A DNA stretch of 64,000 bases from an uncultured Muribaculaceae bacterium (GTDB lineage: Bacteria > Bacillota_I > Bacilli_A > RF39 > UBA660): positions 9,371 to 73,370 of the forward strand of contig CAZELY010000003.1 of NCBI GenBank assembly GCA_964513345.1, written 5' to 3'. Position numbers and translations under genes: made by a program. The notes under the pieces were generated by a model. It was not told the DNA's origin, did no database searches, and was given only the letters and a program-made list of their open reading frames with translations. Below are positions 415 to 62,928 of this stretch, piece after piece (within the stretch, counting starts at the first letter, position 1; the number at the start of each line of letters is the position of its first letter).

Positions 415-699
415 ATGAAAAAGAACGGATTTACACTAATAGAACTACTAGGTATTTTAGTATTACTTGGAATAATTATTTTAGTAGCTGTTCCCGCTAT
501 TATTAAATCAAACTCTACCGCTAAAACTAATGAAGGTAAAGAATTTGATCAAATAGCTAAAAATGCCTGTGAGGCATATGAAGCAGTATATGGTAAGGAT
601 GCAGCTAAAGATAAGACACTAGAAGAACTTAAAAATGCAGGTTACATACAAAAAGATTTGACTAAACCAAATGGAGCAACGTGGACTAAATGTTCTTAA
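415..699 (+). CDS. Prepilin-type N-terminal cleavage/methylation domain protein (small pseudopilin/ComGC-like)
   Basis: The N-terminus MKKNG|FTLIELLGILVLLGIII is a class III signal (G-1, F+1, E+5 plus a hydrophobic helix). It has a LKNAGYI motif and two Cys. It ends 24 nt before pgk with no terminator in between. Confidence 0.8.
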   Translation: MKKNGFTLIELLGILVLLGIIILVAVPAIIKSNSTAKTNEGKEFDQIAKNACEAYEAVYGKDAAKDKTLEELKNAGYIQKDLTKPNGATWTKCS

Positions 700-3290: not shown

Positions 3291-4058
3291 ATGGAAACAA
3301 TAAATGTATTAATGATTGATGATAATGTAAACTTAATAGACATGGTTAAAGAATATTTTAAGGAAAAGAAAGGTGTTAATGTTATAAAAGAAGCCTACGA
3401 TGGAATTCAAGGACTAGAAATAATTAAAGAAAACTTAGATGAAATTGACTTAATTATTTTAGATTTGATTATGCCAAAAAAAGATGGAATTTATGTTTTA
3501 AAAGAGATGAAAAAGTTAGGAATTGATAAAAAAGTAATTGTCGCAACTAGTTATAATGCTGCCGAAGTGATTAGAGAAGTTTCAGAATATGGAGTTAATT
3601 ATTATATTTTAAAACCATTTGATTTAGAAGACTTAGAAAAAAGAATTCACGAAATAACCAACAAAAAAAATGAAAATAAAAATATTGATTTTTACAATAG
3701 TAATATTCAAGTGTCAATTACTAAAATGCTGCATGAGCTAGGTATTCCATCACATATTAAAGGGTACCAATATATTAGAGAAGCCGTCAACATTATTTTT
3801 AAAAATCCCGAAGTTATTGGCGGCATTACTAAAGAATTATACCCTGAACTAGCTACTAAATTTTCGACAACTGTATCTCGAGTTGAAAGAGCTATTAGGC
3901 ATGCCATTGAAGTTAGTTGGAATCGAGGTAATTTAGATTTTATGGAGGAATTATTTGGATATAGTGTTGATATTGATAAAGCTAAGCCAACAAATTCAGA
4001 GTTTATTGTCACTATTGCCGATAAACTAAGATTAGATTACCATAAAGTTGGCAATTAG
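3291..4058 (+). CDS. spo0A: Sporulation master response regulator Spo0A
   Basis: Receiver domain (DD at 10-11, D in [11 protein letters not shown]) plus the Spo0A-specific C-terminal domain ([23 protein letters not shown] ... [19 protein letters not shown]). Confidence 0.9.
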
Positions 4059-4113: not shown

Positions 4114-4470
4114 ATGAAGAAAAATGGTTTTACATTAATTGAACTAGTAGGCGCAGTCGTTATTATAGCTATATTGGCATTAATCGCGTTTCCAGCCTTA
4201 GTTAGTATGTTAAATAAAGGTCAAGCTAAAATAGATAAATCAGTTAAGGAATTTGTTATGGCGGCTGTAGCGGAGTATGTTAATGATAATATTGATAGTT
4301 TAGGTACAAAACGTAGAATTGATGTAACTGCAGATTTAATAGAAAATGGGTATATTTCAACATCGTTTGCCGATAAGTACTGCGAAATCAAAAATGATTA
4401 TGTCATAATAGATTTGGGAACATCTTTAAAACAAAAATATCAGGAAGTCATGCCAGACGATAATTGTTAA
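4114..4470 (+). CDS. Prepilin-type N-terminal domain protein (pseudopilin-like)
   Basis: MKKNG|FTLIELVGAVVIIAILALIAFPAL, an LIENGYIS motif and a C-terminal Cys pair. It has its own -10 (TATAAT) and its own terminator (AAAACTATTT/AAATAGTTTTT). Confidence 0.8.
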   Translation: MKKNGFTLIELVGAVVIIAILALIAFPALVSMLNKGQAKIDKSVKEFVMAAVAEYVNDNIDSLGTKRRIDVTADLIENGYISTSFADKYCEIKNDYVIIDLGTSLKQKYQEVMPDDNC

Positions 4471-10606: not shown

Positions 10607-11656
10607 ATGAATAAAACAAAACAAAAAAATATATTTATCATTAGCTTACTAGCTATAGTACTAATAATGGCCGTAGGCTATGCAGCTTTCGCAACAAATC
10701 TAACGGTAAATGGGACAGCAAGTATTTCATCAAATTGGTGTATAGGGTTTGATAGTACTAAAACTACAGATTATGTAGCAAGTAAAACTCATTCTACTGG
10801 AGACACACCAACAGGAAGTATTTCATTTAGTGGAAATGCATGTCAGACTAACTATAAAACAAATGCATCTTTAGTAGCTAATTTTAAACAACCAGGAGAT
10901 AAAATAGAATATACCCTAACAATAGCAAATAAAGGAAGTTTAGCAGCAGCAATAGAAAGTATCTTAGTAGATAATAATAACGTAACATCTAATCAAACAA
11001 TAACAAAAGGAAATGTAAAATATACAATAGAGATGCCATTAGATACATCATTAGCAGAAAATGAAACCACAACCATGCAAATAACAGCGGAGTTTCAAAA
11101 TGATACAAATATAAGCACCTCTAGTACAAGTACAGAAACCATAAGTGTTCAAATTAATGCCACCCAAGATGATGGTAGTGGAGGCTTCACTCCAACCCCA
11201 GCAGCGCAAACAGTATACGCAATCAATACAAGTAGTATATATAAAAACACATCAACGCTACAAGATATAGGAACAACGTATAATAGTTGTTCCGCAACAG
11301 GGAAGAATACATGTATAAGATATACTATAGAAAATGATATCGTAACAGGAGCAGAAGCTTGCTTTGTAAAAGGCGGAACTGAGTATTGCCTAAAAGGCTG
11401 GGTAGATGAGTGCTTGTATGATGGTAACGATTGTACATTTACAGGAACACAAACAGTATATAATGCCAATAAAACAACATTACAAACAGCCTTTACAGAA
11501 ACAAATGCCTGTTCTGATATTGGCTATGATTTCGGCTGCGATGCTTCCGGTTTCGATGCCAGCGCCAATAATGAGGGCGGCGTCTATGCGTACGATGGCG
11601 GCTGGAGCTGCTATGTCTATTCAGATGGCAATGCCGACTGCAGCGACAGCAGTTAG
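10607..11656 (+). CDS. Secreted protein: TasA/SipW-type leader, TasA(camelysin)-like N-domain, six-Cys C-terminal module
   Basis: The leader ..IMAVGYA|AFATNLTVNGTAS parallels TasA ..GGTWA|AFNDIKS..ASGTLDL. NFKQPGDKIEYTLTIANKGSLAAAI parallels TasA NLKPGDKLTKDFQFENNGSLAIKEV. The C-terminal Cys-rich module is shared with 52331-52933 and 61948-62928. Confidence 0.65.
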   Translation: MNKTKQKNIFIISLLAIVLIMAVGYAAFATNLTVNGTASISSNWCIGFDSTKTTDYVASKTHSTGDTPTGSISFSGNACQTNYKTNASLVANFKQPGDKIEYTLTIANKGSLAAAIESILVDNNNVTSNQTITKGNVKYTIEMPLDTSLAENETTTMQITAEFQNDTNISTSSTSTETISVQINATQDDGSGGFTPTPAAQTVYAINTSSIYKNTSTLQDIGTTYNSCSATGKNTCIRYTIENDIVTGAEACFVKGGTEYCLKGWVDECLYDGNDCTFTGTQTVYNANKTTLQTAFTETNACSDIGYDFGCDASGFDASANNEGGVYAYDGGWSCYVYSDGNADCSDSS

Positions 11657-11765
11657 TAGCCTAGTTGCGGTCCGCCCATCTTGAAATCTTGAATCCTTCA
11701 AGATAAAGGAAAGGCAAAATGTGTTTGCTATAAGCAAATTAATATAAAATAACAAAACATTTTAA

Positions 11766-34231: not shown

Positions 34232-34260
34232 TTGACATTTTTCATAATTTGTGCTAAAAT
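34232..34260 (+). promoter_or_regulatory. Strong sigma-A-type promoter driving the large noncoding region
   Basis: TTGACA (34232-34237), a 17-nt spacer, then TGc-TAAAAT (extended -10, 34252-34260). Confidence 0.65.
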
Positions 34261-34265
34261 TTTAA

Positions 34266-34735
34266 GTGTTGTGGTGCATTATTCTAGTTACATAACGCTA
34301 AAGGAAGGTAGGCCTAAAAATCTACCGGTTGCTGTAACGACACTTTATATATTTGCTTTTTCTGCCCAAGTTAGGGTGAATATATAATTTAAAGATCTAG
34401 GAACTCTATAATGGCATATAGTAGCTACTCCTGGATTTGCGTCATTATCAATCAAATCGGCAGGTCGTGAGTGGTATTGTGGGATAAACTTTTAACGATT
34501 AATACCCTGATCAGGTTTTAAATCTTTTGAAAACAATACTGCAAAAGCGGATAAGCTTAGCTCATTATGTATTAGGGAAAACCTCTAGAGTGTATATATT
34601 ATAAGTCTTGTAGTGCGGACCGAATGGCAATCGAGTCATTAATTCGGCGACGATTAATTGCTTTCTTTAAATAGAAATAGCCGGTGGGTAACCTAAGGTA
34701 GAAAGTAGAGAAATTCAACTCGACCACAGCCGTAA
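34266..34735 (+). ncRNA. Large structured noncoding RNA candidate (possibly OLE-class); not RNase P or tmRNA by motif
   Basis: No ORF in 567 nt of intergenic DNA, which is visibly more G+C-rich than the flanks. A long-range closing helix pairs GTTGTGGT (34268-34275) with ACCACAGC (34723-34730). There are many local hairpins: GGTAG/CTACC 34307-34326, GATTTG/CAAATC plus CCTG/CAGG 34430-34464, GGTATT/AATACC 34473-34506, and CCGAAT/ATTCGG 34620-34647. No terminator precedes the downstream four-TM gene. Confidence 0.6.
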
Positions 34736-34777
34736 AATTAATTTATAATATACCATAATGTTTTTTAAGGTGATCAA

Positions 34778-35290
34778 ATGAAAAGAGATAATTGGATTTT
34801 AATTATATTTATATTAACGTTCATATTGTCTTTTTTATTTAGTTCTATTTCTAATTTAATTTCCAATTTTAATATAGTTGCGATGATAATAATATTACTT
34901 GCTACTATATGCTTTGGTGTTGTTTTCGATATGATTGGTGTTGCCGTATTAAGTGCTAATGAAGCCACTTTTCATGCTAAAGCAGCTAACAAAATATATG
35001 GATCTAAAAAGAGTATAGAACTAATTAAAAATGCCAATAGAACTAGTAGTATTTGTAATGACGTTGTCGGTGATATTTGTGGAATTATTTCTGGTGCTCT
35101 AGCAGCTGGATTAATTATCATGCTGTGGGATACGCCAATTTTTGCTGCCATAATTACAGCTATTGTTTCGAGCCTTACGGTTGGCTTTAAAGCCATCGGT
35201 AAAAAAATGGCCATTAAACATGCTGACAATATTGTGGAAAAAGTTGGCATTATTATTAGTAGAATAGAATTTAAAAGAAAAGAAAAATAG
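34778..35290 (+). CDS. Small four-TM membrane protein with basic loops (OapA-like position)
   Basis: 170 aa with four hydrophobic helices, acidic motifs in the helices (FDMIGVA, NDVVGDICG), and Lys/Arg-rich loop and tail. Lies directly downstream of the structured RNA. Confidence 0.6.
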   Translation: MKRDNWILIIFILTFILSFLFSSISNLISNFNIVAMIIILLATICFGVVFDMIGVAVLSANEATFHAKAANKIYGSKKSIELIKNANRTSSICNDVVGDICGIISGALAAGLIIMLWDTPIFAAIITAIVSSLTVGFKAIGKKMAIKHADNIVEKVGIIISRIEFKRKEK

Positions 35291-35308: not shown

Positions 35309-36205
35309 TTATTGACCTTCTACATAATAAGCATAATATTCTTCTAAAGTAAGGTTTTCATCTTTAATTATTTTAGCTACTTCTTTTCCGACATAGCGGT
35401 AGTGCCATGATTCATAAGTATACCCTGTAACATCTTCTTTATTCTTTGGAAATCTTAAAATAAATCCATATTTATGAGCGTTTTTATCTAGCCATTTAAA
35501 AGCATCAGTGTTTTCAAATCCACTATTTATTTGATTAATATCGGTAGCTAAGCCAGTTTGATGTTCAGAAAAACCAGGCCTTGCTGAATATGTATCAGCG
35601 GCTTCTTTGCCATCTTTGGAAACGTAGTTATTGTATAAAGTAACTTGGTAGTCATAGCTTCTAAAAGCGGATGCATTTTTAATCGAAATATTTTCTAGCA
35701 ATGCGGCATTACTCATTTCCATAAATGCATCAGCGGCCACTTTACGCATTGTATTGTTTTTGCCAATATTATATTCATCGGTTAATACAACTAGATCATT
35801 AGGTATATAATTATCTTTCAAATAGTAATATTTATTTACTAACATTAGATTACCTTTACTTAAATCTGTTTCAAAAACATCTTTGTATTTTTCTTTGTCT
35901 AAATTGGCATTAACATCAGTAATAACTTTATTTAGTGATAAACTATTATTCTTATTGTAATAGTCGACATAGCGTTTCAAATTGTTTTTGATAAAATACT
36001 TTTCTTGCGCTAATTTTTCTTCAAGTGTAATTTCATCTTTGGTGTTGTCTTTTGTATCTTCTGTAACATTTGCTTGTTTCACATTATCACCAGTTTCTTT
36101 TGGGTTATTAGTAATAAAATAAATTCCTATTATAATTAATACTATGAATATAAATAAAACAATACTTTTATTTTTTTTCTTTCTTTTTCGAACCATCGCT
36201 AACAT
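35309..36205 (-). CDS. Membrane-anchored M15B (VanY-type) D,D-carboxypeptidase
   Basis: SEHQTGLATDI and ESWHYRYVG zinc-site motifs, plus an N-terminal TM. Confidence 0.85.
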   Translation of the reverse strand: MLAMVRKRKKKNKSIVLFIFIVLIIIGIYFITNNPKETGDNVKQANVTEDTKDNTKDEITLEEKLAQEKYFIKNNLKRYVDYYNKNNSLSLNKVITDVNANLDKEKYKDVFETDLSKGNLMLVNKYYYLKDNYIPNDLVVLTDEYNIGKNNTMRKVAADAFMEMSNAALLENISIKNASAFRSYDYQVTLYNNYVSKDGKEAADTYSARPGFSEHQTGLATDINQINSGFENTDAFKWLDKNAHKYGFILRFPKNKEDVTGYTYESWHYRYVGKEVAKIIKDENLTLEEYYAYYVEGQ

Positions 36206-37154
36206 CCTTATCTAAATAAAATGCATAATATTCATCATATGTCAAACCAGAATTTTTAACTTTAGTGGCTAAATCTTGACCTAAATAACGGTAGTGCCAA
36301 GATTCATAAGAATAGCCTGTAATATTTTCTTTATCCTTAGGATACCTTAAAATAAAGCCGTATTTATGAGCATTTTTACTAAGCCATTTGAAAGCATCGG
36401 TCTGGTCAAAGTTTTTACCATTTGCTCCATAAGTAATAATATCAATAGCTAAACCGGTTTGGTGTTCAGAGTGATTTGGTCTAGCAGCATAGCCATCAGC
36501 ATATTCTTCACCTTTAGTGTTTTTATAATTATCATATAATCCTTTTTGATATTCATAAGTGCGAAAACCAGAATTTATGATTAGAGTTATATTTTCTTTT
36601 TTGGCAGCGTTAAACATATTCTTAAAAGCATCATATACTTCGCTTCTTAAACTATTATCACCATAGGCATATTGATTACTGGCTTTTACAAGATCTTCGG
36701 GTTTATATTTTTCAGGCAAAGAATAATACTTATTAACTAAAATCGAATATCCATTATCCATATTAGTTTCTTTAATGTGAGTATAGTAATCATAATTACG
36801 TTTAACATTTACAATAGTAATAATTTCGCTGTAATCTATTTTATTAGTTTCTTGTTTTTTCTTATTTATATATTCCTTATAAGTATTATAGTTTTTCCAA
36901 ATAAAGTATTTTTCGCTAGTTAAAGGAATTAACTCTTTATCATATTTTGTTAGCGCTTTATCGATAACTTTTTGGTCTGATTTTATTAGTGTGCTAATTT
37001 CGCTTTCATTGTACCCAATCTGACCAAGTTTATATTCATAACTATTATAATATTTATATAGTTTAAAACCAACAATTCCGCCAATTATCAGTAACACAAA
37101 AATTATTAAAATAACGATTGGCCATTTTTTAATTCTTCTTCTTGTTTGATACAT
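36168..37154 (-). CDS. Membrane-anchored M15B (VanY-type) D,D-carboxypeptidase, tandem paralog
   Basis: SEHQTGLAIDI and ESWHYRYLG, plus an N-terminal TM. The start is taken at MYQTRRR (37154). Confidence 0.85.
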   Translation of the reverse strand: MYQTRRRIKKWPIVILIIFVLLIIGGIVGFKLYKYYNSYEYKLGQIGYNESEISTLIKSDQKVIDKALTKYDKELIPLTSEKYFIWKNYNTYKEYINKKKQETNKIDYSEIITIVNVKRNYDYYTHIKETNMDNGYSILVNKYYSLPEKYKPEDLVKASNQYAYGDNSLRSEVYDAFKNMFNAAKKENITLIINSGFRTYEYQKGLYDNYKNTKGEEYADGYAARPNHSEHQTGLAIDIITYGANGKNFDQTDAFKWLSKNAHKYGFILRYPKDKENITGYSYESWHYRYLGQDLATKVKNSGLTYDEYYAFYLDKDVSDGSKKKEKK

Positions 37155-37279
37155 AAAGTCACTACCTTTCATAACAAAATTGTATCATAGTTTTTACACT
37201 TTAAAAAAAGAAAAATTTGTTTTTTGATTTACGATGTAAAGTAAAAGTGATATAATGTAATAAAGAATAGGGTGAATCT

Positions 37280-38395
37280 ATGAGAGGATTAAGAAGACAT
37301 AGAAATAGAAAACAAGTAAAAATAGTACTTTGTATGGCCATATGTTTATTAACTATCATGACAGTTGGCTATGCTGCTTTTAGTACTAATATTGGATTAA
37401 ACGCTAAGGGGAATTTGATAGAGTGCTATCAAAACAGAAAATGGGATTTTGATCATAAAAAAGAAGCTCAAGAAATTACCATTTCTTGCCCGGGAGTTTA
37501 TCTGTTTGAGCTGTGGGGCGCAGGAAACAATTATTCTGGCGGTGGTTATACTTCTGGTAAAATAAGCTTGCAAAGAAATGACAAATTTTATCTATATGTT
37601 GGTGAACAAGGCCATGATAATAACAGTGATACAATTGGGGGATGGAATGGTGGTGGCAACACCATTGCGACAACACAGGGTAAATCTGGAATGACTGGTA
37701 GTGGTTCAACTGATGTAAGGACAGTATCAGGTGACTGGGATAATTTTAATTCTTTAAAGTCAAGAATTATGGTTGCTGGAGGCGCTGGAGGAGTAGGAGG
37801 CGCAAACCAAGGTGCCAATGGTGGCGGCTTGGTTGGTTATGATGGATCCTCTACTAATACAGATTATTTAATTTATTTAGGTAAAGGTGGTACCCAAACA
37901 GCCGGAGGCGCTGCACCTACCAAATATGATGCTGCTCAATCTAATGGCACACCTGGTTTGTTTGGTAAAGGTGGCACCGGTGGCGCAAGTCGCGATGATA
38001 CTTCGACCGGTGGTGGCGGAGCTGGTGGTGGCGGCTACTTTGGTGGTTCAGGAGCCAGTGGACTTTCCAATGGCACGTTTGCTGCTGGTGGTGGATCATC
38101 ATTTATATCAGGGCATGTTGGTTGTATAGCTATTGATCAAAATTCTACTGAAAGTAATATTCAGCAAAGAAAAGGAACAAATAATGCAACTTGTGTAGAT
38201 AATTCCACTGATGTATTATGTTCACGTCATTATTCAAATTATATATTTACCGAAACTGAGATAATTGATGGTAAAGGTTATGGATGGACAAACAATATTG
38301 GAAGTTATGAAGGTCAACCACAACCAGATAGTACTATTGCTGCTGGACATATTGGTAATGGCCACGCTAGAATAACATTGATCTCACTTAATTAA
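37280..38395 (+). CDS. Secreted glycine-rich-domain protein with a TasA/SipW-type leader
   Basis: Leader ..TIMTVGYA|AFSTNIGLNAKGN. The body reads CPGVYLFELWGAG..GGGYTSG..LYVGEQG..GGWNGGG..GSGSTDVR..IMVAGGAGGVGG..GGGGAGGGGYFGGSGA..GGGSSFI, which resembles the bacterial 'glycine rich protein' family related to the ALK/LTK glycine-rich domain. Confidence 0.6.
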   Translation: MRGLRRHRNRKQVKIVLCMAICLLTIMTVGYAAFSTNIGLNAKGNLIECYQNRKWDFDHKKEAQEITISCPGVYLFELWGAGNNYSGGGYTSGKISLQRNDKFYLYVGEQGHDNNSDTIGGWNGGGNTIATTQGKSGMTGSGSTDVRTVSGDWDNFNSLKSRIMVAGGAGGVGGANQGANGGGLVGYDGSSTNTDYLIYLGKGGTQTAGGAAPTKYDAAQSNGTPGLFGKGGTGGASRDDTSTGGGGAGGGGYFGGSGASGLSNGTFAAGGGSSFISGHVGCIAIDQNSTESNIQQRKGTNNATCVDNSTDVLCSRHYSNYIFTETEIIDGKGYGWTNNIGSYEGQPQPDSTIAAGHIGNGHARITLISLN

Positions 38396-46923: not shown

Positions 46924-46989
46924 AGACTTTATAAAAAGTCTTTTTGTTTATACTTGAATTAAACTTTAATTTGTACTATAATTATTTTA

Positions 46990-47200
46990 ATTGCGATGAA
47001 TAAGAGTAGTAATAATTTATTTGTTTTAAAGAGAGAAAACGGTTGGTGAAAGTTTTTAAATAAAGGTTATGAACTTACTTAGGAGCTGCATATATGATAA
47101 GTATATGCCGTATGTGGTGCGTTAAACTATTGAGATAATTAAAGCATTATAAAATAAGGTGGTACCACGTTCAATACGTCCTTATGCATAATGCTTTTTA
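46990..47200 (+). promoter_or_regulatory. T-box leader (Leu, specifier CUU)
   Basis: Promoter TTGAAT-17 nt-TATAAT (46954-46982). Stem I elements AGAGA and GGTTGGTGAAAG, a GAA-CUU-A specifier at 47071-47077, the T-box AAGGTGGTACCACG at 47156-47169, and a terminator ending in TTTTT. Confidence 0.85.
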
Positions 47201-47214
47201 TATTAGGAGGACTT

Positions 47215-47559
47215 ATGAAATATTTATTAACGTTTATTTTTAGTTTTGTTATTATTTATTTGCTTTATTATTTAACGGTTGTAAGACGTGACAAGGGGAT
47301 TGAAGCATTCAAACAAGGAAAACAACTTTTATTTTTTAAAAATGCTTATAAATTAAATATTGATAAGTTGAATTATAAAAAATTTGCTAATGCACTAGCG
47401 ATAACTAATGCTTTTATCGTGGCATCAGTTGTAACGATTATTGAATGCGTAAATGGCTATATCCTTAAGCTACTCGTTGGCTTTGTAATTTTAATTCCGC
47501 TTATTTTAATTTGTTATTACATTTTAGGACGCATTTATAAAAAGAAAGAGGGTAAATAA
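47215..47559 (+). CDS. Small membrane protein between the T-box leader and leuS
   Basis: AGGAGG RBS; 114 aa with N-terminal and C-terminal TM segments. Its stop lies 1 nt before the leuS ATG. Confidence 0.5.
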   Translation: MKYLLTFIFSFVIIYLLYYLTVVRRDKGIEAFKQGKQLLFFKNAYKLNIDKLNYKKFANALAITNAFIVASVVTIIECVNGYILKLLVGFVILIPLILICYYILGRIYKKKEGK

Positions 47560-47560
47560 A

Positions 47561-49975
47561 ATGTATGATTATAAAAAAATAGAAAAGAAATGGCAAGAAT
47601 ATTGGGATAAGAATAAAACTTTTAAAACTGATAGTTGGGATTTTTCTAAACCTAAGTTTTATGCCCTTGATATGTTTCCATATCCATCAGGAGTTGGACT
47701 TCATGCTGGACATCCAGAAGGATATACGGCAACAGATGTTGTTTGTCGTATGAAAAGAATGCAAGGTTATAATGTTCTTCATCCAATGGGTTATGATTCT
47801 TTCGGACTTCCTGCTGAACAATATGCTATTCAAACGGGTAACCACCCAGCTATATTTACTAATGAAAATATTAAAACTTTTAGAGGGCAATTAAAATCAC
47901 TTGGTTTTTCGTATGATTGGGATAGAGAAATATCAACTTCTGATCCCGAATACTATAAATGGACCCAATGGATTTTTAAAAGACTTTTTGAAGATGGTCT
48001 TGCTAAATATGTTGATATGCCTGTCAATTGGTGTGAAGGATTAGGTACAGTTTTATCAAATGATGAAATTGTTGATGGAAAATCAGAACGCGGAGGATTT
48101 CCAGTCGTTAGAAAAAATATGAAACAATGGGTTATTGATATTCCGAAGTATGCCGAAAAATTGCTTGAAGGATTAGATGAATTAGATTGGCCAGAATCAA
48201 CTAAAGAAATCCAAAGAAATTGGATTGGTAAATCAAAAGGTGTCGAAGTTAAATTTAATATTAAAGGTGGCGGTTTTTTCAAAATATATACAACGTGTAT
48301 TGAAACTATATATGGTATTACTTTTATGGTTCTAGCGCCTGAAAATCCTTTAGTTGATGAGCTTAAAGATAGAATAGGTAACTGGGATGAAGTAGTTAAA
48401 TATAGAGAAGAAACTGCTACAAAATCGGATATCGATAGAACCGAATTAAATAAAGAAAAAAATGGTGTTATTCTTGAAGGTGTATATGCGATTAACCCTG
48501 TGAATAATAAAGAAGTGCCGATTTATTTAGGTGACTTTGTTCTAGCAAGTTATGGAACTGGTGCTGTGATGGCTGTACCATCACACGATCAAAGAGATTT
48601 CGAATATGCTTTAAAATATGATATTCCAATGATTCAAGTTATCGAAGGTAAAGATACGTCTAATGAGGCTTTTGAAAAGCAAGATTATTTAGGTAAAGAT
48701 TGCAAACTTATCAATAGTGATGAATTTAATGGAATGACAGTTGAAGAGGCTAAACCAGCAATTACTAAAAAATTAATTGATATGGGCGTTGGTGAAGAAA
48801 AAACCAATTATAGATTAAGAGAATGGATTTTTGCTCGTCAAAGATATTGGGGTGAACCAGTGCCGATTATCCATTTAGAAGATGGAAAAAGTATAGCTTT
48901 ATCTGATGATGAATTACCATTAATTTTGCCAACATTAGATGACTATCAAGGTAAAAAAGGGAAAGCTCCTTTGGAAAATGATCAAAATTGGGTTAATGTC
49001 GAAGTGAATGGTAAAAAAGGAAGACGCGAAACATCAACGATGCCAGGCTCAGCTGGATCTAGTTGGTATTTCTTACGATACATCGATCCACATAACGAAA
49101 AAGAATTTGCTGATTATGAATTGTTAAAACATTGGATGCCAGTTGATCTATACGTTGGAGGCCCTGAACACGCTGTTGGTCATTTGCTTTACTCCAGAAT
49201 GTGGAATGAATATTTATATGATAAAGGATTAGTTCCATGCAGTGAACCATTTAAAAAATTAGTTCATCAAGGAATGATTTTGGGCTCTAATGGACTTAAA
49301 ATGGGTAAACGTTTTCCTAAATATTGTATTAATCCATCGGATATTGTAAGGGATTTTGGTGCAGATACATTAAGGCTTTATGAGATGTTTATGGGGCCAC
49401 TTGATGCCGACAAACCATGGAGTGATGCTGGAGTCGTTGGCGCCAAAAAGTTTATTGACAAAGTATTCAAATTATATACTGAAGAAAACAAAATCTCTGA
49501 TGAAGAAAATAAAAATCTCGAAATGATTTATCATCAGACCGTAAAGAAAGTTACTAATGATTATGAAACATTAAATATAAATACGGCAATATCACAAATG
49601 ATGATATTTATGAATGCCGTTCAAAAAGAAAATACATATCCAAGAAAATATGCCGAAGGGTTTATTAAACTTTTAAATCCACTTTGCCCACATGTAACTG
49701 AAGAACTATGGGAAATATTAGGTCACGAGGATACTATTGCTTACGAAGATTGGCCTATATATGATGAAGAAAAGACAATTGATTCATCATATGAACTAGT
49801 TATTCAAGTTAATGGCAAGGTAAGAGGTAAGATAACATTACCAATGGACTCTCCTAAAGAAGAAATGGAAAAAGCTGCGATGGAAAATGAAAATACTAGA
49901 AAGTTTATTCAAGATAAAGAAATTGTCAAGGTTATTTCTATTCCAAACAAACTTGTAAATATTGTTGTAAAATAA
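47561..49975 (+). CDS. leuS: Leucine-tRNA ligase
   Basis: HAGHPEGY (HIGH region), KMGKR (KMSKS-like), 804 aa. Confidence 0.95.
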   Translation: MYDYKKIEKKWQEYWDKNKTFKTDSWDFSKPKFYALDMFPYPSGVGLHAGHPEGYTATDVVCRMKRMQGYNVLHPMGYDSFGLPAEQYAIQTGNHPAIFTNENIKTFRGQLKSLGFSYDWDREISTSDPEYYKWTQWIFKRLFEDGLAKYVDMPVNWCEGLGTVLSNDEIVDGKSERGGFPVVRKNMKQWVIDIPKYAEKLLEGLDELDWPESTKEIQRNWIGKSKGVEVKFNIKGGGFFKIYTTCIETIYGITFMVLAPENPLVDELKDRIGNWDEVVKYREETATKSDIDRTELNKEKNGVILEGVYAINPVNNKEVPIYLGDFVLASYGTGAVMAVPSHDQRDFEYALKYDIPMIQVIEGKDTSNEAFEKQDYLGKDCKLINSDEFNGMTVEEAKPAITKKLIDMGVGEEKTNYRLREWIFARQRYWGEPVPIIHLEDGKSIALSDDELPLILPTLDDYQGKKGKAPLENDQNWVNVEVNGKKGRRETSTMPGSAGSSWYFLRYIDPHNEKEFADYELLKHWMPVDLYVGGPEHAVGHLLYSRMWNEYLYDKGLVPCSEPFKKLVHQGMILGSNGLKMGKRFPKYCINPSDIVRDFGADTLRLYEMFMGPLDADKPWSDAGVVGAKKFIDKVFKLYTEENKISDEENKNLEMIYHQTVKKVTNDYETLNINTAISQMMIFMNAVQKENTYPRKYAEGFIKLLNPLCPHVTEELWEILGHEDTIAYEDWPIYDEEKTIDSSYELVIQVNGKVRGKITLPMDSPKEEMEKAAMENENTRKFIQDKEIVKVISIPNKLVNIVVK

Positions 49976-49978
49976 TTG

Positions 49979-50007
49979 AAAAAGCTATAGAAAACTATAG
50001 CTTTTTA
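49979..50007. terminator. Bidirectional terminator between leuS and the convergent small gene
   Basis: AAAGCTATAG-aaaa-CTATAGCTTT flanked by A and T runs. Confidence 0.8.
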
Positions 50008-50190
50008 ATATGGCCTATAGCCATAATATGGATAAGGATAATAATAGTAAGTGTTATAAGGTCTATTGTATCCACCATAAAATAATGGTGCTACTAAACC
50101 ACCAGTTAGTCCGCCTAATAAAAATGGACCTAAAAATCCACCGCCCAAATTGTTATTAGGACGAAATGATCGCGATCTTCCATAATTCAT
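50005..50190 (-). CDS. 61-aa Gly/Tyr/Pro-rich small protein (spore-coat-like composition)
   Basis: MNYGRSRSFRPNNNLGGGFLGPFLLGGLTGGLVAPLFYGGYNRPYNTYYYYPYPYYGYRPY. GAGGGGG RBS 8 nt upstream; the longer ORF-track start is rejected. Confidence 0.55.
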   Translation of the reverse strand: MNYGRSRSFRPNNNLGGGFLGPFLLGGLTGGLVAPLFYGGYNRPYNTYYYYPYPYYGYRPY

Positions 50191-50259
50191 ATTTATGCCC
50201 CCTCTCATAATATAATATGAAAAATCATTTAACATGTTTATAAAACATATAATTATTAC

Positions 50260-50562
50260 ATGAAAAAACTATTCCGTATTATCGGGGTTATAAGCTTACT
50301 TATTGGAAGTTTTATGTATAATGAAACAGTAGAAACGGTTTTTAAATATGAAAATGGTATAAAAAGAAATGTTACATTAATTTTGGTAGAAAGCAATAAC
50401 AATGCGATAGCTAAAAATCCATTTATATATGTTAAGAATAATTTAAAACCTAATAGTGTTTTTATAATTAAAAAAAATGATCAAACAAAAAAAGAATTAC
50501 AAGCCATAATTAATTATATTAAAGCTAAAGGTTATGAAATAAATTTAGTGGATAAAGAATAA
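50260..50562 (+). CDS. Hypothetical membrane-anchored protein
   Basis: 100-aa ORF with an N-terminal TM. No obvious RBS. Confidence 0.35.
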   Translation: MKKLFRIIGVISLLIGSFMYNETVETVFKYENGIKRNVTLILVESNNNAIAKNPFIYVKNNLKPNSVFIIKKNDQTKKELQAIINYIKAKGYEINLVDKE

Positions 50563-50601
50563 AAAACAAAAACAAAAATATAATTATATAGGAGGTTCAA
50601 A

Positions 50602-51198
50602 ATGAAAAAAACAGTGCCATTTAAAAAAGAAATTGTTTTTGATAATAATATTGATGAAATTAATAGTATTTCATTAGAATATGAAGTAAATGAAAAAAGT
50701 AATAATTTAATAAAGGGTAATTTTATAATTAATGGAGATTATCGTATGGCTAGTGGTAGTTCTAATCTCGATACATTTTCATATAATTTGCCATTTAGTA
50801 TCAATGTTGACAGCAAATACAATATCGATGAAGCGGAAATCGAAATTAGTGATTTTTATTATGAGGTTGTAAATAATAAAATATTATCGGTTAATATTGA
50901 ATTAGAAGTCGATAATATTTTAGAAAACGAGCAAAACATAAAACTAGAAGTAGATGAGCCAGTAAAAGAGGCTGAAGTAATTGAAACTCAGTCTACTGAA
51001 ACAATTAAATCACTATTCGATAATTTAGAAGATAATGAAACATATACAACGTATAAAGTTCATATCGTAACAGAAAATGATACCATAGAATCGATAATAG
51101 TAGATTATGAAATAACTAAAGAAAAATTAGAAAATTATAATAATTTAACTGATATTAAAATTGGCGATAAAATTATTATCCCAGCCAATGAAAATTAA
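50602..51198 (+). CDS. spoVID: SpoVID-like spore coat morphogenetic protein (N-terminal SpoVID-type region, acidic linker, C-terminal LysM)
   Basis: LysM at the C-terminus (YKVHIVTENDTIESIIVDYEITKEKLENYNNL..IGDKIIIP), a highly acidic middle, and a CotS/YsxE-like gene downstream as in B. subtilis spoVID-ysxE. Confidence 0.55.
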   Translation: MKKTVPFKKEIVFDNNIDEINSISLEYEVNEKSNNLIKGNFIINGDYRMASGSSNLDTFSYNLPFSINVDSKYNIDEAEIEISDFYYEVVNNKILSVNIELEVDNILENEQNIKLEVDEPVKEAEVIETQSTETIKSLFDNLEDNETYTTYKVHIVTENDTIESIIVDYEITKEKLENYNNLTDIKIGDKIIIPANEN

Positions 51199-52057
51199 TG
51201 AAGATTTAAAAAAGTATTCTTTGATACCAAAACGCTATACAAAAAAGAATAAGTCATTTATTATTGATACCAATAAAGGAAAATTTGTATATAAAAACTC
51301 TAAACCCAAAAAAGAAATTTTGGATTATTTAAAAACGAGAAATTTTGATTATATACCAAAATATATAACTAAATCATTTGACAATTATCAAATAACTGAA
51401 TATTTAGAAAATTACAATATTCCGAAAGAACAAAAAATATTAGATATGATTAATTTAGTTTCTCTTTTACATAGTAAAACCACCCATTATAAAGAAATTG
51501 ATATTAATGAATATGAAAAGATATATGAAGAAGTAATTAATAATATTGATTATTTAAGAGGTTATTATACTGATTTAATAACAATTATTGAAAGCAAAGT
51601 ATATCCGAGCCCAAGCGAATATTTACTTGAACGTAATATTAGTATTATTTTTGGTACTTTAAATAGTTTAAACGAGCGTCTTGAAAAATTTAATACTTTA
51701 ATTACAAATAAAAAAACTGATAGAAATGTTATTTTACACAATAATTTAAAATTGGATCATTTTATTAGAAATAATAAATCATATTTAATTAATTGGGATT
51801 ATGCAAAAATAGGAAATCCTATATTTGATATTTATAAACTATATAAAAACCATGTTAGTGATTTTGATTTTTTAGAATTATTAAAAGCATATGAAAAAAA
51901 TTATCCTTTAAAAGATGATGAAAAGGAACTTTTGTTTATTTTAATAAGTTTACCGGATAAAATAGAATTTAATGATAATGAATATGAGATGTGTAAAAAA
52001 ATAAGTAAATTTGTCGATGAATTATATAAAACAAATAATTTTACCAAAACAATTTAA
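51188..52057 (+). CDS. ysxE: CotS/YsxE-family spore coat protein (kinase-like fold)
   Basis: The LHNNLKLDHFI and NWDYAKIGNPIFDI patterns (aminoglycoside/choline-kinase-like), overlapping the spoVID-like stop. Confidence 0.55.
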   Translation: MKINEDLKKYSLIPKRYTKKNKSFIIDTNKGKFVYKNSKPKKEILDYLKTRNFDYIPKYITKSFDNYQITEYLENYNIPKEQKILDMINLVSLLHSKTTHYKEIDINEYEKIYEEVINNIDYLRGYYTDLITIIESKVYPSPSEYLLERNISIIFGTLNSLNERLEKFNTLITNKKTDRNVILHNNLKLDHFIRNNKSYLINWDYAKIGNPIFDIYKLYKNHVSDFDFLELLKAYEKNYPLKDDEKELLFILISLPDKIEFNDNEYEMCKKISKFVDELYKTNNFTKTI

Positions 52058-52330: not shown

Positions 52331-52933
52331 ATGAATCAAAAAGGATTTATTGCTTCATCACTTTTATATGGTATGCTGGCGCTTTTCTTAACATTAATGA
52401 TAAGTACCTTATTTATTTTTGGTAATAATAAATTAAGTATGGATAGATTAAAAGAAAAAGCTTTGAATGATTTAGGAACACCAGTAGAAATTATTAGTAT
52501 TCGCCAAGTTTATGCATATCATTTGGATCAGAAGACTATCGGTACAAGTACAATTACAGATGGTGTTGAGGATTATACAGCTTTAAGTTCATATCAAAAT
52601 GGTAAAAAATGGTTTTTAAAATATGAAATTAATTCAAGTAATGTAATTCAAAAAGCATGGGCCTGCATGAAATATGATTTTATAACAGAACCTGTATGTA
52701 TTCAAGGTGGCGGAAGCGAATTTTATAGTCCTAACAGAGAATTATTACAAGGATTAACGGATCTTTTTACGTCAAATGGTGGTTCATGCGTTCCAGCATC
52801 AAATCGAATTGATTGTTCTGCCGGCGAGTTGGAAATTACTAATATGAATACAAATAATTATTTGACTTGGAATGATTCTTTAATGGAGTATTGTGAAATA
52901 AATGGGAATAAGGCTTATTGTGGTCAAGAATAA
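52331..52933 (+). CDS. Pilin-like protein with a degenerate class III leader and the six-Cys C-terminal module
   Basis: MNQKG|FIASSLLYGMLALFLTLMISTLFIF has G-F but no Glu at +5. The C-terminal part (ACMKYDFITEPVCIQGGG..C-x8-C-x25-C-x8-C) is shared with 10607-11656 and 61948-62928. Confidence 0.6.
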   Translation: MNQKGFIASSLLYGMLALFLTLMISTLFIFGNNKLSMDRLKEKALNDLGTPVEIISIRQVYAYHLDQKTIGTSTITDGVEDYTALSSYQNGKKWFLKYEINSSNVIQKAWACMKYDFITEPVCIQGGGSEFYSPNRELLQGLTDLFTSNGGSCVPASNRIDCSAGELEITNMNTNNYLTWNDSLMEYCEINGNKAYCGQE

Positions 52934-52975
52934 TAGATTATTGACAAAACAAACATAAAAGATTATAATTTATAG

Positions 52976-53190
52976 AAAACGAAGAACAAGAGGAGTAGAG
53001 TATATATTTTTTAAAGAGAGTTAGTGGTTGGTGAAAACTAATAAAAATAATATTTGAAGGTAGCTTGGGAGTTGATGCACGAATAGTTAATGTACTCCGC
53101 TAAAACGGCGTTATTGTTTTAAGGTAATTAATAATTACAAATTAAGGTGGTACCACGTGCAAAACGTCCTTATACAGGGGCGTTTTTTTA
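52976..53190 (+). promoter_or_regulatory. T-box leader (Val, specifier GUA)
   Basis: Promoter TTGACA-17 nt-TATAAT (52941-52969). AGAGAG and GGTTGGTGAAAAC, specifier region GAAGGUAG at 53056-53063, the T-box AAGGTGGTACCACG, and the terminator AACGTCC..GGGGCGTTTTTTT. Confidence 0.85.
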
Positions 53191-53207
53191 TTGGAAAGGA
53201 TGATAAC

Positions 53208-55730: not shown

Positions 55731-55823
55731 AATAGTGTCTAAAATATATTTTGCATAAATTTTGATTGATTTTTTAAAATAATTGTGTTATATTTGTTAT
55801 ATAGAATACAAGGAGGATTTAAT

Positions 55824-56270
55824 ATGAATAAGAAAGGTTTTACTTTAGTTGAGTTATTAGCCGTTATCGTTATTTTAGCTATCATTGCATTAATTACCGC
55901 ACCAGCAATATTGAATGTCATTAATGATGCTCGTCAAAAAGGAGCAGAAGATAAAGCTTGGGGTACAATTGATGCCGTTAGACTTGCTTATACTCAAGAA
56001 CAAGGGTTTGGCACATCAACACTTACAAGAAATGATGGATCTACTAGTGGGGATGAAAAATATATTGTAACATTTGGAACAACTACGGGGAATGCACATG
56101 AAGTTGTTGGATCTCGTTCAATCACTGTAAGTGGTGAAAAACCAGTATCTGGTAAAGTAATAATAAATTTAACTTCTGGTCAAATTTCTTGTGAAAACTT
56201 AGAATTTACTGCCAATGGTAAATTTAAATGTTCTTCATCAGGTAACACAATGACTTGTACTGCACAATAA
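55824..56270 (+). CDS. Prepilin-type N-terminal domain protein (type IV pilin/pseudopilin-like)
   Basis: MNKKG|FTLVELLAVIVILAIIALITAPAIL, three C-terminal Cys, AGGAGG RBS and its own terminator (AAGCACTTT/AAAGTGCTT). Confidence 0.85.
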   Translation: MNKKGFTLVELLAVIVILAIIALITAPAILNVINDARQKGAEDKAWGTIDAVRLAYTQEQGFGTSTLTRNDGSTSGDEKYIVTFGTTTGNAHEVVGSRSITVSGEKPVSGKVIINLTSGQISCENLEFTANGKFKCSSSGNTMTCTAQ

Positions 56271-61898: not shown

Positions 61899-61947
61899 GT
61901 TGTTGAAAATAAATAAAAAATCGATTATAATTAAAATGGGTGAGAGC

Positions 61948-62928
61948 ATGAGTAAAAAAGGGTTTACGTTAATCGAATTACTTGTTGTAATTGTTATACT
62001 TGCAATTATTGCTTTAGTAGCTGTCCCGGTGATAATTGGTGTCATTAATAGTTCCAAAGAAAAAGCATATCAGGAACAGGAAAGAGCTATTGTCACAGCA
62101 GCTAGAAATTATATTGCTAAAAATTCAAAAGAAATGCCAACAATGAAAGGTGCAAGTAAATGTATACCGGTTGAAACTTTAAAAAACGCTGGATTATTAA
62201 AAGATCAGACAATTCAAAATCCAGTTGGAGTTAATTATAAAGATTACACCGAAAAAGATGACAATTTTAACGGCGGTGTTTTAGTTGAAAATAATAACAA
62301 CAATTATACATATAATTATGTTGATGACTGCTCAACTATAACATTTACTGGAACGATATATAGAAATAATCAAGTTGGAGCAGGCATTGGAAGTTCGATA
62401 ATACCAGTAAGTGGGACTAAGTACGTTATAACTAACGGCGAGTATGTTGCCCCAGTTGGCCCATATAATAGTCAAAATGAATGCCAAACGGCATTAACAG
62501 AACATGGGGCCCCCGAAGAATTTTATTGTGAAAAACAAACTGGAACATTTGGGGGAATCGGTGAATACACAAAAGATGCTTCAGGTTTGAATAAAAAACA
62601 TTATTTAAAACACGAAGTAGTAGACAATATAATAACTGCATCATATGCATGTTTTGTAACGGACAAAGAATATTGTATGCAAGGGGGAAATGCATCTTAT
62701 TATGCTGCCAACCAAGCAATATTACAAAGCCAAGATGCGTGGTTTAATAACAGCGATGGTTACTGCTATATTGAATCTGAATTTTCAGGTTGTTACAGTT
62801 ATAATAAATATAATATTGGTGCAAATTCATATGGTGAGGTTTATACTAGATCATCTGACATTCTTGGATGTATAGTGGAGAAAGATGGCTTTTCCCACTG
62901 TAATAAAAGAGAAGAATCGGCTATGTAG
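61948..62928 (+). CDS. Type IV pilin-like protein carrying the six-Cys C-terminal module
   Basis: MSKKG|FTLIELLVVIVILAIIALVAVPVI, a pilin-type Cys pair (KC..DC) and a LKNAGLL motif. These are followed by an extra roughly 190-aa region ending in ACFVTDKEYCMQGGN..C-x8-C-x25-C-x9-C. Confidence 0.8.
   Translation: MSKKGFTLIELLVVIVILAIIALVAVPVIIGVINSSKEKAYQEQERAIVTAARNYIAKNSKEMPTMKGASKCIPVETLKNAGLLKDQTIQNPVGVNYKDYTEKDDNFNGGVLVENNNNNYTYNYVDDCSTITFTGTIYRNNQVGAGIGSSIIPVSGTKYVITNGEYVAPVGPYNSQNECQTALTEHGAPEEFYCEKQTGTFGGIGEYTKDASGLNKKHYLKHEVVDNIITASYACFVTDKEYCMQGGNASYYAANQAILQSQDAWFNNSDGYCYIESEFSGCYSYNKYNIGANSYGEVYTRSSDILGCIVEKDGFSHCNKREESAM

Follow-up and report, generated by a model that had tools for sequence, protein, structure and literature searches.

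Three window genes with a common six-cysteine module

The DNA analysed here, referred to as the window, is a 64 kb stretch of contig CAZELY010000003.1 (assembly GCA_964513345.1) from an uncultured bacterium, and carries three genes, designated A, B, and C (Table 1), whose products end in a shared module with six conserved cysteines. An initial annotation of the window had already drawn attention to these three open reading frames (ORFs), which are real, and to the resemblance of their C-termini, but missed both the nature of the last third of the module and the inequivalence of its three copies. Our results showed that the segment between the third (Cys3) and the sixth cysteine (Cys6) is the variable region (VR) of a diversity-generating retroelement (DGR), as observed directly in two relatives and indicated, indirectly but strongly, for gene A. 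Within the window, the copy of gene A looks diversified, whereas those of B and C look fixed.

The C-terminal 140 residues or so of the three proteins are homologous. BLASTP comparisons with compositional adjustment aligned the ends of A and B with E=2e-7 (27% identity across 139 aa) and those of B and C with E=2e-10; the C-termini of A and C alone gave a marginal E=0.07, so that these two are connected through B and through the family profile. With a hidden Markov model (HMM) of the module, the window translated in all six frames yielded these three copies and no other, at E-values from 1e-57 to 1e-64, the next match being at E=0.6. The six cysteines (C252, C261, C302, C311, C335, and C345 in A) were invariant in alignments of 7 and 28 sequences, and the spacing C-x8-C-x23/25-C-x8/9-C described in the initial annotation holds exactly in A, B, and C, whereas the motif that it gave as LQ-x3-F reads in fact LQ-x2-F in A and LQ-x5-F in B and C. 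The module of A holds four additional cysteines (C228/C236 and C269/C276). Concerning the genes themselves, the gene caller placed the start of B at an ATG at position 61936, an identical protein B was found on 5 contigs, and protein C is recorded on contigs of up to 214 kb.

The family to which the module belongs is large. A word-indexed search returned only five relatives, and an exhaustive profile search against 1.84 billion cluster representatives yielded 429 at E<=1e-3 and 149 at E<=1e-10. The module ended at most 2 residues from the C-terminus in 104 of 153 members and at most 10 residues from it in 135 of them. All members with a source name on record appear as "hypothetical protein [Bacilli bacterium]" and come from animal-gut and ruminant metagenome-assembled genomes (MAGs), and the 217 homologues of gene A are all unnamed proteins of Bacilli MAGs. 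No named family could be assigned, as searches of the module against Pfam, NCBIfam, PDB sequences, and Foldseek were all negative.

A purely compositional origin of the similarity, in which the tails would match only as low-complexity sequence rich in Cys, Gly, Asn, and Tyr, could draw on their abundance of N, S, G, and Y and on the poor direct match between A and C. We give this reading practically no weight, since it is refuted by the profile statistics, with the 149 representatives at E<=1e-10 and the six invariant cysteines in register, and since the BLASTP values above were obtained under compositional adjustment. In addition, the core FLKYE..NVIQ.AWAC...EPVC.QGG is not of low complexity and was modelled by AlphaFold2 (AF2) with a predicted local distance difference test (pLDDT) score >90.

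Variable regions in relatives and a putative one in gene A

DGRs use a reverse transcriptase (RT) and the Avd protein to copy a template repeat (TR) into cDNA, with misincorporation at template adenines, and this cDNA replaces the 3' end of the target gene. To our knowledge, they are the only prokaryotic system of targeted protein hypermutation. In locus L002 (GCA_017511225.1), a 169-nt segment repeating the 3' end of a module gene lies downstream of that gene, ahead of a bAvd gene (PF22296) and then an RT gene (RVT_1). The VR (552-720) and the TR (979-1147) of this locus are 84% identical, and 24 of their 27 mismatches fall at TR adenines (A>G 15, A>T 7, A>C 2), a concentration at the adenines of the intergenic copy that constitutes the defining signature of a DGR. 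An independent MAG contig, CALVIK010000080.1 (locus L009), presented the same layout, with homologues of the Avd and RT of L002 (E 1e-63 and 1e-181, respectively) and 24 of 28 mismatches at TR adenines in a sensitive blastn comparison. The VR starts at Cys3 and runs up to the stop codon. Three module genes of a third MAG, RGIG6191, had 3' ends that were 76-81% identical, with the similarity extending beyond the stop, as expected if one template serves several VRs.

The composition of the family as a whole showed the same trend. K, E, Q, and M, the residues that mutagenesis of AAY codons cannot produce, represented a median of 4.2% of the segment from Cys3 to the end, compared with 13.9% in the part of the module that precedes it (249 sequences). 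A VR signature was also present in P0119 and P0280, which are canonical type IV pilins bearing the module, with a GC content at third codon positions (GC3) of 0.42-0.46 versus 0.10-0.11. Both are solitary among housekeeping genes, and a search for a cassette found none within 10 kb; similarly, neither RT nor Avd was detected in the 10-kb flanks of the other A-type and pilin-type loci, including those of P0170 and P0157 described below. The scan of genome contigs provided 4 loci, and that of metagenome contigs 9, mostly short and none with an RT. In L006, L007, L149, L002, and L009, the module genes lie at contig ends, either with a truncated N-terminus or with the contig stopping just past the VR, which would be explained by hypervariable or repeated VR/TR sequences breaking metagenome assemblies. 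Such breaks may be the reason why cassettes rarely appear beside their targets in these data.

In the window, the last 144 nt of A showed a GC content of 0.54 and a GC3 of 0.58, against a GC3 of 0.18 in the rest of the gene. These values are comparable to those of the proven VRs (GC/GC3 of 0.59/0.71 in L002 and 0.54/0.52 in L009), and the segment is one of only two GC islands within the 64 kb. K, E, Q, and M account for 2.2% of its residues. The protein P0154 is 93% identical to A, with 18 of the 26 amino acid differences clustered in the last 50 residues. At the nucleotide level, the 144-nt VRs of both genes differ at 22 positions, 21 of them at codon positions 1-2, compared with 11 differences, 6 of them at position 3, in the 183 nt directly upstream; a single difference was found in the 41 nt past the stop, beyond which the sequences are unrelated (52% differences). 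Variable positions recur in the alleles P0154 and P0155, which share 11 of their respective 16 and 19 variable positions among 48 (p=0.005). Furthermore, the residues invariant in twelve A-type sequences, namely C302 (TGT), C311 (TGC), S314 (TCC), G324 (GGC), V326 (GTC), A328 (GCG), W333 (TGG), C335 (TGC), S339 (TCA), G341 (GGC), A343 (GCC), and C345 (TGC), have no adenine at codon position 1 or 2 in any case, and the template deduced for A would be rich in AAT and AAC codons. On these sequence features, gene A is likely a current or recent DGR target, and the confidence in the DGR statement is higher still for the family.

In contrast, the heads of B and C look fixed, with no VR signature in their sequences. 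Their last 144 nt have a GC content of 0.33 in both genes and a GC3 of 0.21 (B) and 0.25 (C), and their K/E/Q/M contents of 12.8% and 15.2% correspond to the 94th and 96th percentiles of the family, respectively. B differs from the near-identical P0016 at only 3 residues, and C from P0001 at only 4, scattered ones.

Several observations weigh against a retroelement acting on A. No RT or Avd (phmmer with the L002 proteins, six-frame) and no TR (repeat search and blastn of the three gene ends) was found in the window, nor was an RT, Avd, or TR detected in the approximately 10 kb that follow gene B past the window end. A search of metagenome contigs for the template of A, using an adenine-tolerant pattern with third codon positions fixed, gave 0 matches; as this pattern missed even the VR of A itself, the collection did not contain this organism. 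Protein A was identical in three samples, its 90% cluster has one member, and no variants at >=90% are on record, a uniformity in which no ongoing diversification was observed. The downstream neighbours of P0154 and P0156 differ from those of A, so these proteins may be paralogues and not alleles, in which case gene conversion plus selection could contribute to their divergence. The syntenic orthologue of A in a different MAG is P0170, likewise located upstream of ClpC, AsnB, and Alr; it presented no VR signature, a frozen state from which it follows that diversification is switched on and off within the family. The block past the stop of A, a candidate for the initiation of mutagenic homing (IMH) site by which the 3' end of a VR is marked, has a GC content of 0.50, does not resemble the IMH regions of either L002 or L009, and forms only a weak hairpin (fold z-score -1.9). 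Finally, the binding function and the disulfides discussed below are inferred only.

Part of this would also be found if A, B, and C were all ordinary adhesin domains foreign to any DGR, and if the variable, GC-rich end of A either were the relic of a past one or had arisen by recombination among paralogues subject to diversifying selection, the genome retaining no functional cassette. Such an explanation agrees with the lack of an RT or TR in the window and the fetched flanks, with the identity of A across three samples, and with the loss of the signature in P0170, B, and C, which indicates that diversification does get lost in this family. However, a tract with a GC3 of 0.58 in a genome of 29% GC should decay fast if it were not renewed, as in B, C, and P0170; the 21:1 bias towards codon positions 1-2 and the depletion in K, E, Q, and M are predicted by adenine mutagenesis and not by recombination; and the block past the stop is conserved. 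We therefore consider this alternative unlikely and keep A as a probable DGR target.

A further protein, P0157 (L010/L011), 75% identical to A, was recorded in samples ERZ28018901 and ERZ28654662, which are also the source of the window protein A. It showed an intermediate VR signature (GC3 0.38) in a different context (DnaE, LtaS, SspI), and it may be another A-type copy, belonging either to the same genome or to a sister one. Given that the VR of P0157 and the block past its stop are unlike those of A, a different template would be needed.

Table 1. Features of the window discussed in the text; slashes within leaders mark putative cleavage positions.
Feature	Coordinates	Strand	Description and evidence
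Gene A	10607..11656	+	ORF, 349 aa; N-terminal helix with conserved 'VGYAAF', beta-sandwich, six-Cys module ending in putative VR
Leader or signal anchor of A type	10607..10699	+	MNKTKQKN, hydrophobic stretch, VGYA/AFATNL
Six-Cys module of A	11207..11656	+	Residues ~201-349; HMM E 4e-57; alignments; AF2
Putative DGR variable region of A	11510..11656	+	Residues 302-349, Cys3 to stop; GC, codon bias, divergence from P0154
Candidate IMH of A	11657..11697	+	GC-rich block past stop, conserved with P0154; weak hairpin ATCTTGAA/TTCAAGAT
Gene B	61948..62928	+	326 aa; canonical type IV prepilin (MSKKG/FTLIELL) + pilin body + six-Cys module (modular pilin)
Six-Cys module of B	62518..62925	+	HMM E 3.6e-64; no VR signature
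Gene C	52331..52933	+	ORF, 200 aa; degenerate prepilin-like leader (MNQKG/FIASS, no Glu5) joined almost directly to six-Cys module
Six-Cys module of C	52499..52930	+	HMM E 3.9e-62; no VR signature
Small canonical type IV pilin	415..699	+	94 aa, MKKNG/FTLIELL; candidate major/minor subunit of filament carrying B and C
Small canonical type IV pilin	4114..4470	+	118 aa; N_methyl
Canonical type IV pilin	55797..56270	+	About 157 aa, MNKKG/FTLVELL; N_methyl
Second 'TVGYAAF'-leader protein	37280..38395	+	Fused to ALK/LTK-type glycine-rich domain, PF12810 1.7e-38

Fold, leaders, and scaffolds of the module proteins

An AF2 model of full-length A, built on an alignment of 102 sequences (mean pLDDT 87), consisted of a helix (residues 3-31), a segment of low confidence ('NLTVNGTASI', residues 31-40, pLDDT below 50), a beta-sandwich (46-187), and the module (201-349). 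The latter, mostly with pLDDT >90, comprised three strands (235-263) followed by a helix (283-295), with six short strands at 302-347 that correspond to the VR. In this model, Cys252/261, Cys302/311, and Cys335/345 are located on neighbouring hairpin strands, an arrangement that would most naturally correspond to consecutive disulfides (1-2, 3-4, 5-6). A model of the module of B alone, based on 7 sequences, was poor (pLDDT 66), and a fold search with it was uninformative.

When the model of A was used as a whole protein in Foldseek searches of PDB and BFVD, nothing was retrieved at E<=1e-3, and the best meaningful neighbour was the archaeal AAP pilin 8q30, also formed by a helix and a sandwich (probability 0.99, E 7.6e-3). 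No match to a C-type lectin (CLec), Mtd, or TvpA was obtained in these searches, made with the entire protein model. Profile searches against PDB sequences were empty, Pfam gave no match to DUF1566, Fib_succ_major, FGE-sulfatase, or any other model for 28 modules at E<=1, and the alignment of the six-Cys module with the DUF6273 head by hhalign had a probability of 0.5%. Kinship with CLec, DUF1566, or DUF6273 domains was thus rejected at the available sensitivity. The domain and structure searches that the initial annotation had suggested led to no characterised family, and at this sensitivity the module is not a member of the known VR classes (CLec1-3, Ig1-2; PMC5758913), the latter of immunoglobulin (Ig) type.

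The leader and scaffold of A had been labelled as TasA/SipW-type, an assignment that failed in every test (Pfam, NCBIfam, PDB profile, and Foldseek). No Peptidase_M73 or SipW-cognate model matched the full protein A at E<=1 or five A-type N-termini at E<=10, the 102-sequence profile of A did not detect TasA among PDB sequences, TasA was absent from the Foldseek top 50 of the AF2 model, and no SipW-type gene was found among the window ORFs read or scanned. A does share with the SipW-exported TasA and camelysin a basic n-region, a hydrophobic stretch, an 'A-AF' motif of small and aromatic residues, and a beta-sandwich, and its conserved flexible N-terminal strand could in principle be a donor strand; unlike them, it matches neither Peptidase_M73/SipW models nor TasA, and its best structural neighbour is the archaeal type IV pilin mentioned above. 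Residues A26, A27, F28, and L32 are (near-)invariant among the 102 homologues, and the sequence makes cleavage by signal peptidase I between A25 and A26 possible, with small residues at -3 and -1, as well as a role as signal anchor. A was also considered as a type IV pilin and rejected, as it has no Gly at -1, no Glu5, and no model match.

A 'TVGYAAF' leader also heads a second protein, encoded at 37280-38395, which shows that this organism uses the leader as a signal for export or anchoring more generally. The same gene contains the other GC island of the window (37621-38140, with a GC content of up to 0.62), which was discarded as a TR, being explained by the glycine codons of the ALK_LTK_GRD protein; neither internal repeats nor a TR-like copy was found for 37280-38395.

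The canonical type IV prepilin leader attributed to B was corroborated by matches to N_methyl of Pfam (PF07963, 3.3e-8) and to TIGR02532 (1.1e-8). That of C is degenerate, as had been noted, since it keeps G-1/F+1 with Ser instead of Glu at +5 and matches no model; C is pilin-like only, short of full membership among type IV pilins. Minor pilins without E5, such as GspK, cap pseudopilus tips, a precedent by which a site at the filament tip would be plausible for C. The five prepilin-type genes of the window (415-699, 4114-4470, 55797-56270, 52331-52933, and 61936-62928) are dispersed singly among housekeeping genes, and several of them have near-identical upstream promoter/ribosome-binding-site and leader DNA (repeat families D1 and D4). 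No prepilin peptidase, PilB-type ATPase, or PilC platform gene was identified among the window ORFs read or scanned.

Throughout the family, the module follows several classes of N-terminus. According to rough counts, the commonest one consists of a basic stretch, a hydrophobic helix, and a 'VGYAAF(A/S)xxLxINGT' motif, and the others are canonical prepilins (KGFTLIELL), degenerate or minor-pilin-like leaders, and a signal anchor followed by a 'NVQDAIDEL' motif. The domain shuffling put forward in the initial annotation is therefore real and far broader than the three window proteins, as the module sits on unrelated scaffolds; what did not stand is the TasA-type fibre scaffold proposed for A. 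Related Bacilli pilins bear LRR_5, Flg_new, TSP1, Big_2, Laminin_G_3, or DUF6273 modules. In addition, heads of the PF19789/DUF6273 type were found on the A-type scaffold (P0230, P0232, P0233, P0240) and on the prepilin scaffold (P0311, P0328, and others), with 'WWLxS...GVRPV' tails that we take to resemble classical CLec-type DGR variable regions. Both scaffolds seem to accept alternative variable heads.

As to the role of the module, it had been interpreted as part of TasA-like and pilus-like fibres, where it could be a structural or assembly domain for polymerisation or anchoring. Its location on fibre-type scaffolds is in line with this, and the disordered and highly conserved AFATNLTVNGTA of A (residues 31-40) could be a donor strand, but A has no similarity to TasA, the module is distal, at the C-terminus, and an assembly interface should be conserved, whereas one third of the module is hypervariable and DGR-templated. 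An assembly domain is thus very improbable. The adhesive side of the original proposal fares better: the module is best read as a distal element for adhesion or binding, in which we infer both the binding and the placement at the pilus tip.

Proposed mechanism and relation to known systems

We consider it most likely that pilins and other surface proteins carry the six-Cys tail as a hypervariable head for binding. Our best explanation overall, held with considerable confidence, is that a DGR varies this C-terminal ligand-binding head, with A as a target and B and C undiversified. The module would serve as the head of surface proteins in uncultured gut Bacilli, and its last ~48 residues (Cys3-Cys6), predicted to form six short beta-strands probably stapled by Cys3-Cys4 and Cys5-Cys6 disulfides, would constitute the VR. 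AAY codons would be randomised, whereas the scaffold of Cys, Gly, Trp, Val, Ala, and Ser would be protected because its codons lack adenine at positions 1-2. The head would be displayed on interchangeable scaffolds, namely type IV pilins (B), an E5-less prepilin-like protein (C), possibly placed at the filament tip, and a stalk made of the 'VGYAAF' helix and a beta-sandwich (A). A would be served in trans by a cassette located elsewhere in the genome, where its template would persist, and B and C would be paralogues with heads no longer, or never, diversified, which presumably bind fixed ligands.

The CLec variable proteins of DGRs, distributed in the DUF1566/FGE-sulfatase classes CLec1-3, include Mtd of BPP-1, TvpA of Treponema denticola, and LdtA of Legionella (Wu et al. 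2018, PMC5758913). The proteins described here are like them in the extreme C-terminal position of the VR, in the TR located beside Avd and RT and the adenine-specific mismatches (in the loci of the relatives), in scaffold codons without A at positions 1-2, in surface display, and in the use of one cassette for several targets, some of them remote. Remote targets have been documented for non-phage DGRs (PMC5758913). Unlike those proteins, the module has no CLec similarity in sequence or fold, its VR is predicted to consist of six short Cys-stapled beta-strands, and it is carried, in Gram-positive bacteria, by type IV pilins and by proteins with the 'VGYAAF' leader. In the DGR surveys consulted, nearly all VRs are assigned to the C-type-lectin fold, with a few tentatively of Ig type, and a "GspG-type pilin" domain is listed among the rare VR-holding proteins in one survey (PMC11661182).

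A further parallel is offered by Bacteroides, whose type V pilus tip adhesins are diversified by a DGR (bioRxiv 10.1101/2024.11.15.621889). As in that system, the gut bacteria considered here would use a DGR to vary an adhesive distal component of the pilus, and the elements are chromosomal or mobile and not phage-borne. However, the type V pilus depends on lipoproteins and strand exchange, while the proteins studied here would follow the type IV prepilin pathway, in another phylum and with another family of variable domain, and their genes are spread out between housekeeping loci at a distance from the cassette.

Gram-positive bacteria also have modular type IV pilins, such as PilB and PilC of Streptococcus sanguinis, with a von Willebrand factor A (vWA) module and a lectin module, respectively. 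B has the same organisation, with a class III signal peptide, a pilin body, and a C-terminally grafted functional module, and differs from them in that its module comes from a DGR-targeted hypervariable family. We know of no characterised modular pilin that is diversified by a retroelement.

Three aspects appear to be new: the cysteine-stapled, non-CLec variable domain, the fact that both modular type IV pilins of Gram-positive bacteria and the 'VGYAAF' scaffold carry it, and the presence of diversifying and frozen paralogues together. Taken to its full extent, the proposal would be that of a third structural class of DGR variable domain, neither CLec nor Ig, in which a disulfide-stapled beta-meander on a small alpha/beta core has been grafted by gut Bacilli onto type IV pilins and an undescribed 'VGYAAF' helix-plus-sandwich scaffold. 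These would then be the first type IV pili to be diversified by a retroelement, and a single genome would hold diversifying paralogues next to frozen ones. We advance this complete version tentatively, its likelihood being somewhat below even.

A Cys-stapled head outside the CLec fold would add to the scaffolds on which massive diversification is known to be tolerated, which is also of interest for protein engineering. The occurrence of the module on canonical type IV pilins suggests an ability of some Gram-positive gut bacteria to reprogram the adhesion of their pili at the pace of colonisation, in parallel with the type V pili of Bacteroides. The coexistence of diversifying (A) and frozen (B, C, and P0170) copies amounts to a natural experiment in the recruitment and retirement of DGR targets, and the recurrence of the 'VGYAAF' leader suggests that these uncultured Bacilli have a system for export, anchoring, or fibre formation that is as yet uncharacterised.

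Regarding the genomic context, the window corresponds to ordinary chromosome, with genes for Pgk, Spo0A, Obg, ClpC, MraY, FtsW, PriA, RuvAB, LeuRS, ValRS, LepA, ThyA, DHFR, and Tmk. A probable spore-coat cluster was recognised by eye at 50005-52057, including a Gly/Tyr/Pro-rich peptide of 76 aa (50005-50235, minus strand), a protein that looks LysM-tailed (50602-51198), and another that looks like a CotS-type kinase (51161-52057); together with Spo0A (3291-4058), this candidate cluster points to a spore-forming lineage. A full-length ornate large extremophilic (OLE) RNA was detected at 34255-34772 on the plus strand (Rfam RF01071, 229 bits, E 2e-63), and the ORF directly 3' of it (34778-35290) encodes a 170-aa membrane protein in the position of the OLE-associated protein OapA. 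T-box leaders (RF00230) were found on the plus strand at 46987-47186 and 52973-53174 (125 and 123 bits), upstream of the genes for LeuRS (47561-49975) and ValRS (53157-55730), respectively, with a membrane ORF of 122 aa (47191-47559) between the first of them and leuS. Finally, two tandem paralogues of VanY-type D-Ala-D-Ala carboxypeptidase are encoded on the minus strand at 35309-36205 and 36168-37172, and share a 159-nt direct repeat with 79% identity (family D2).

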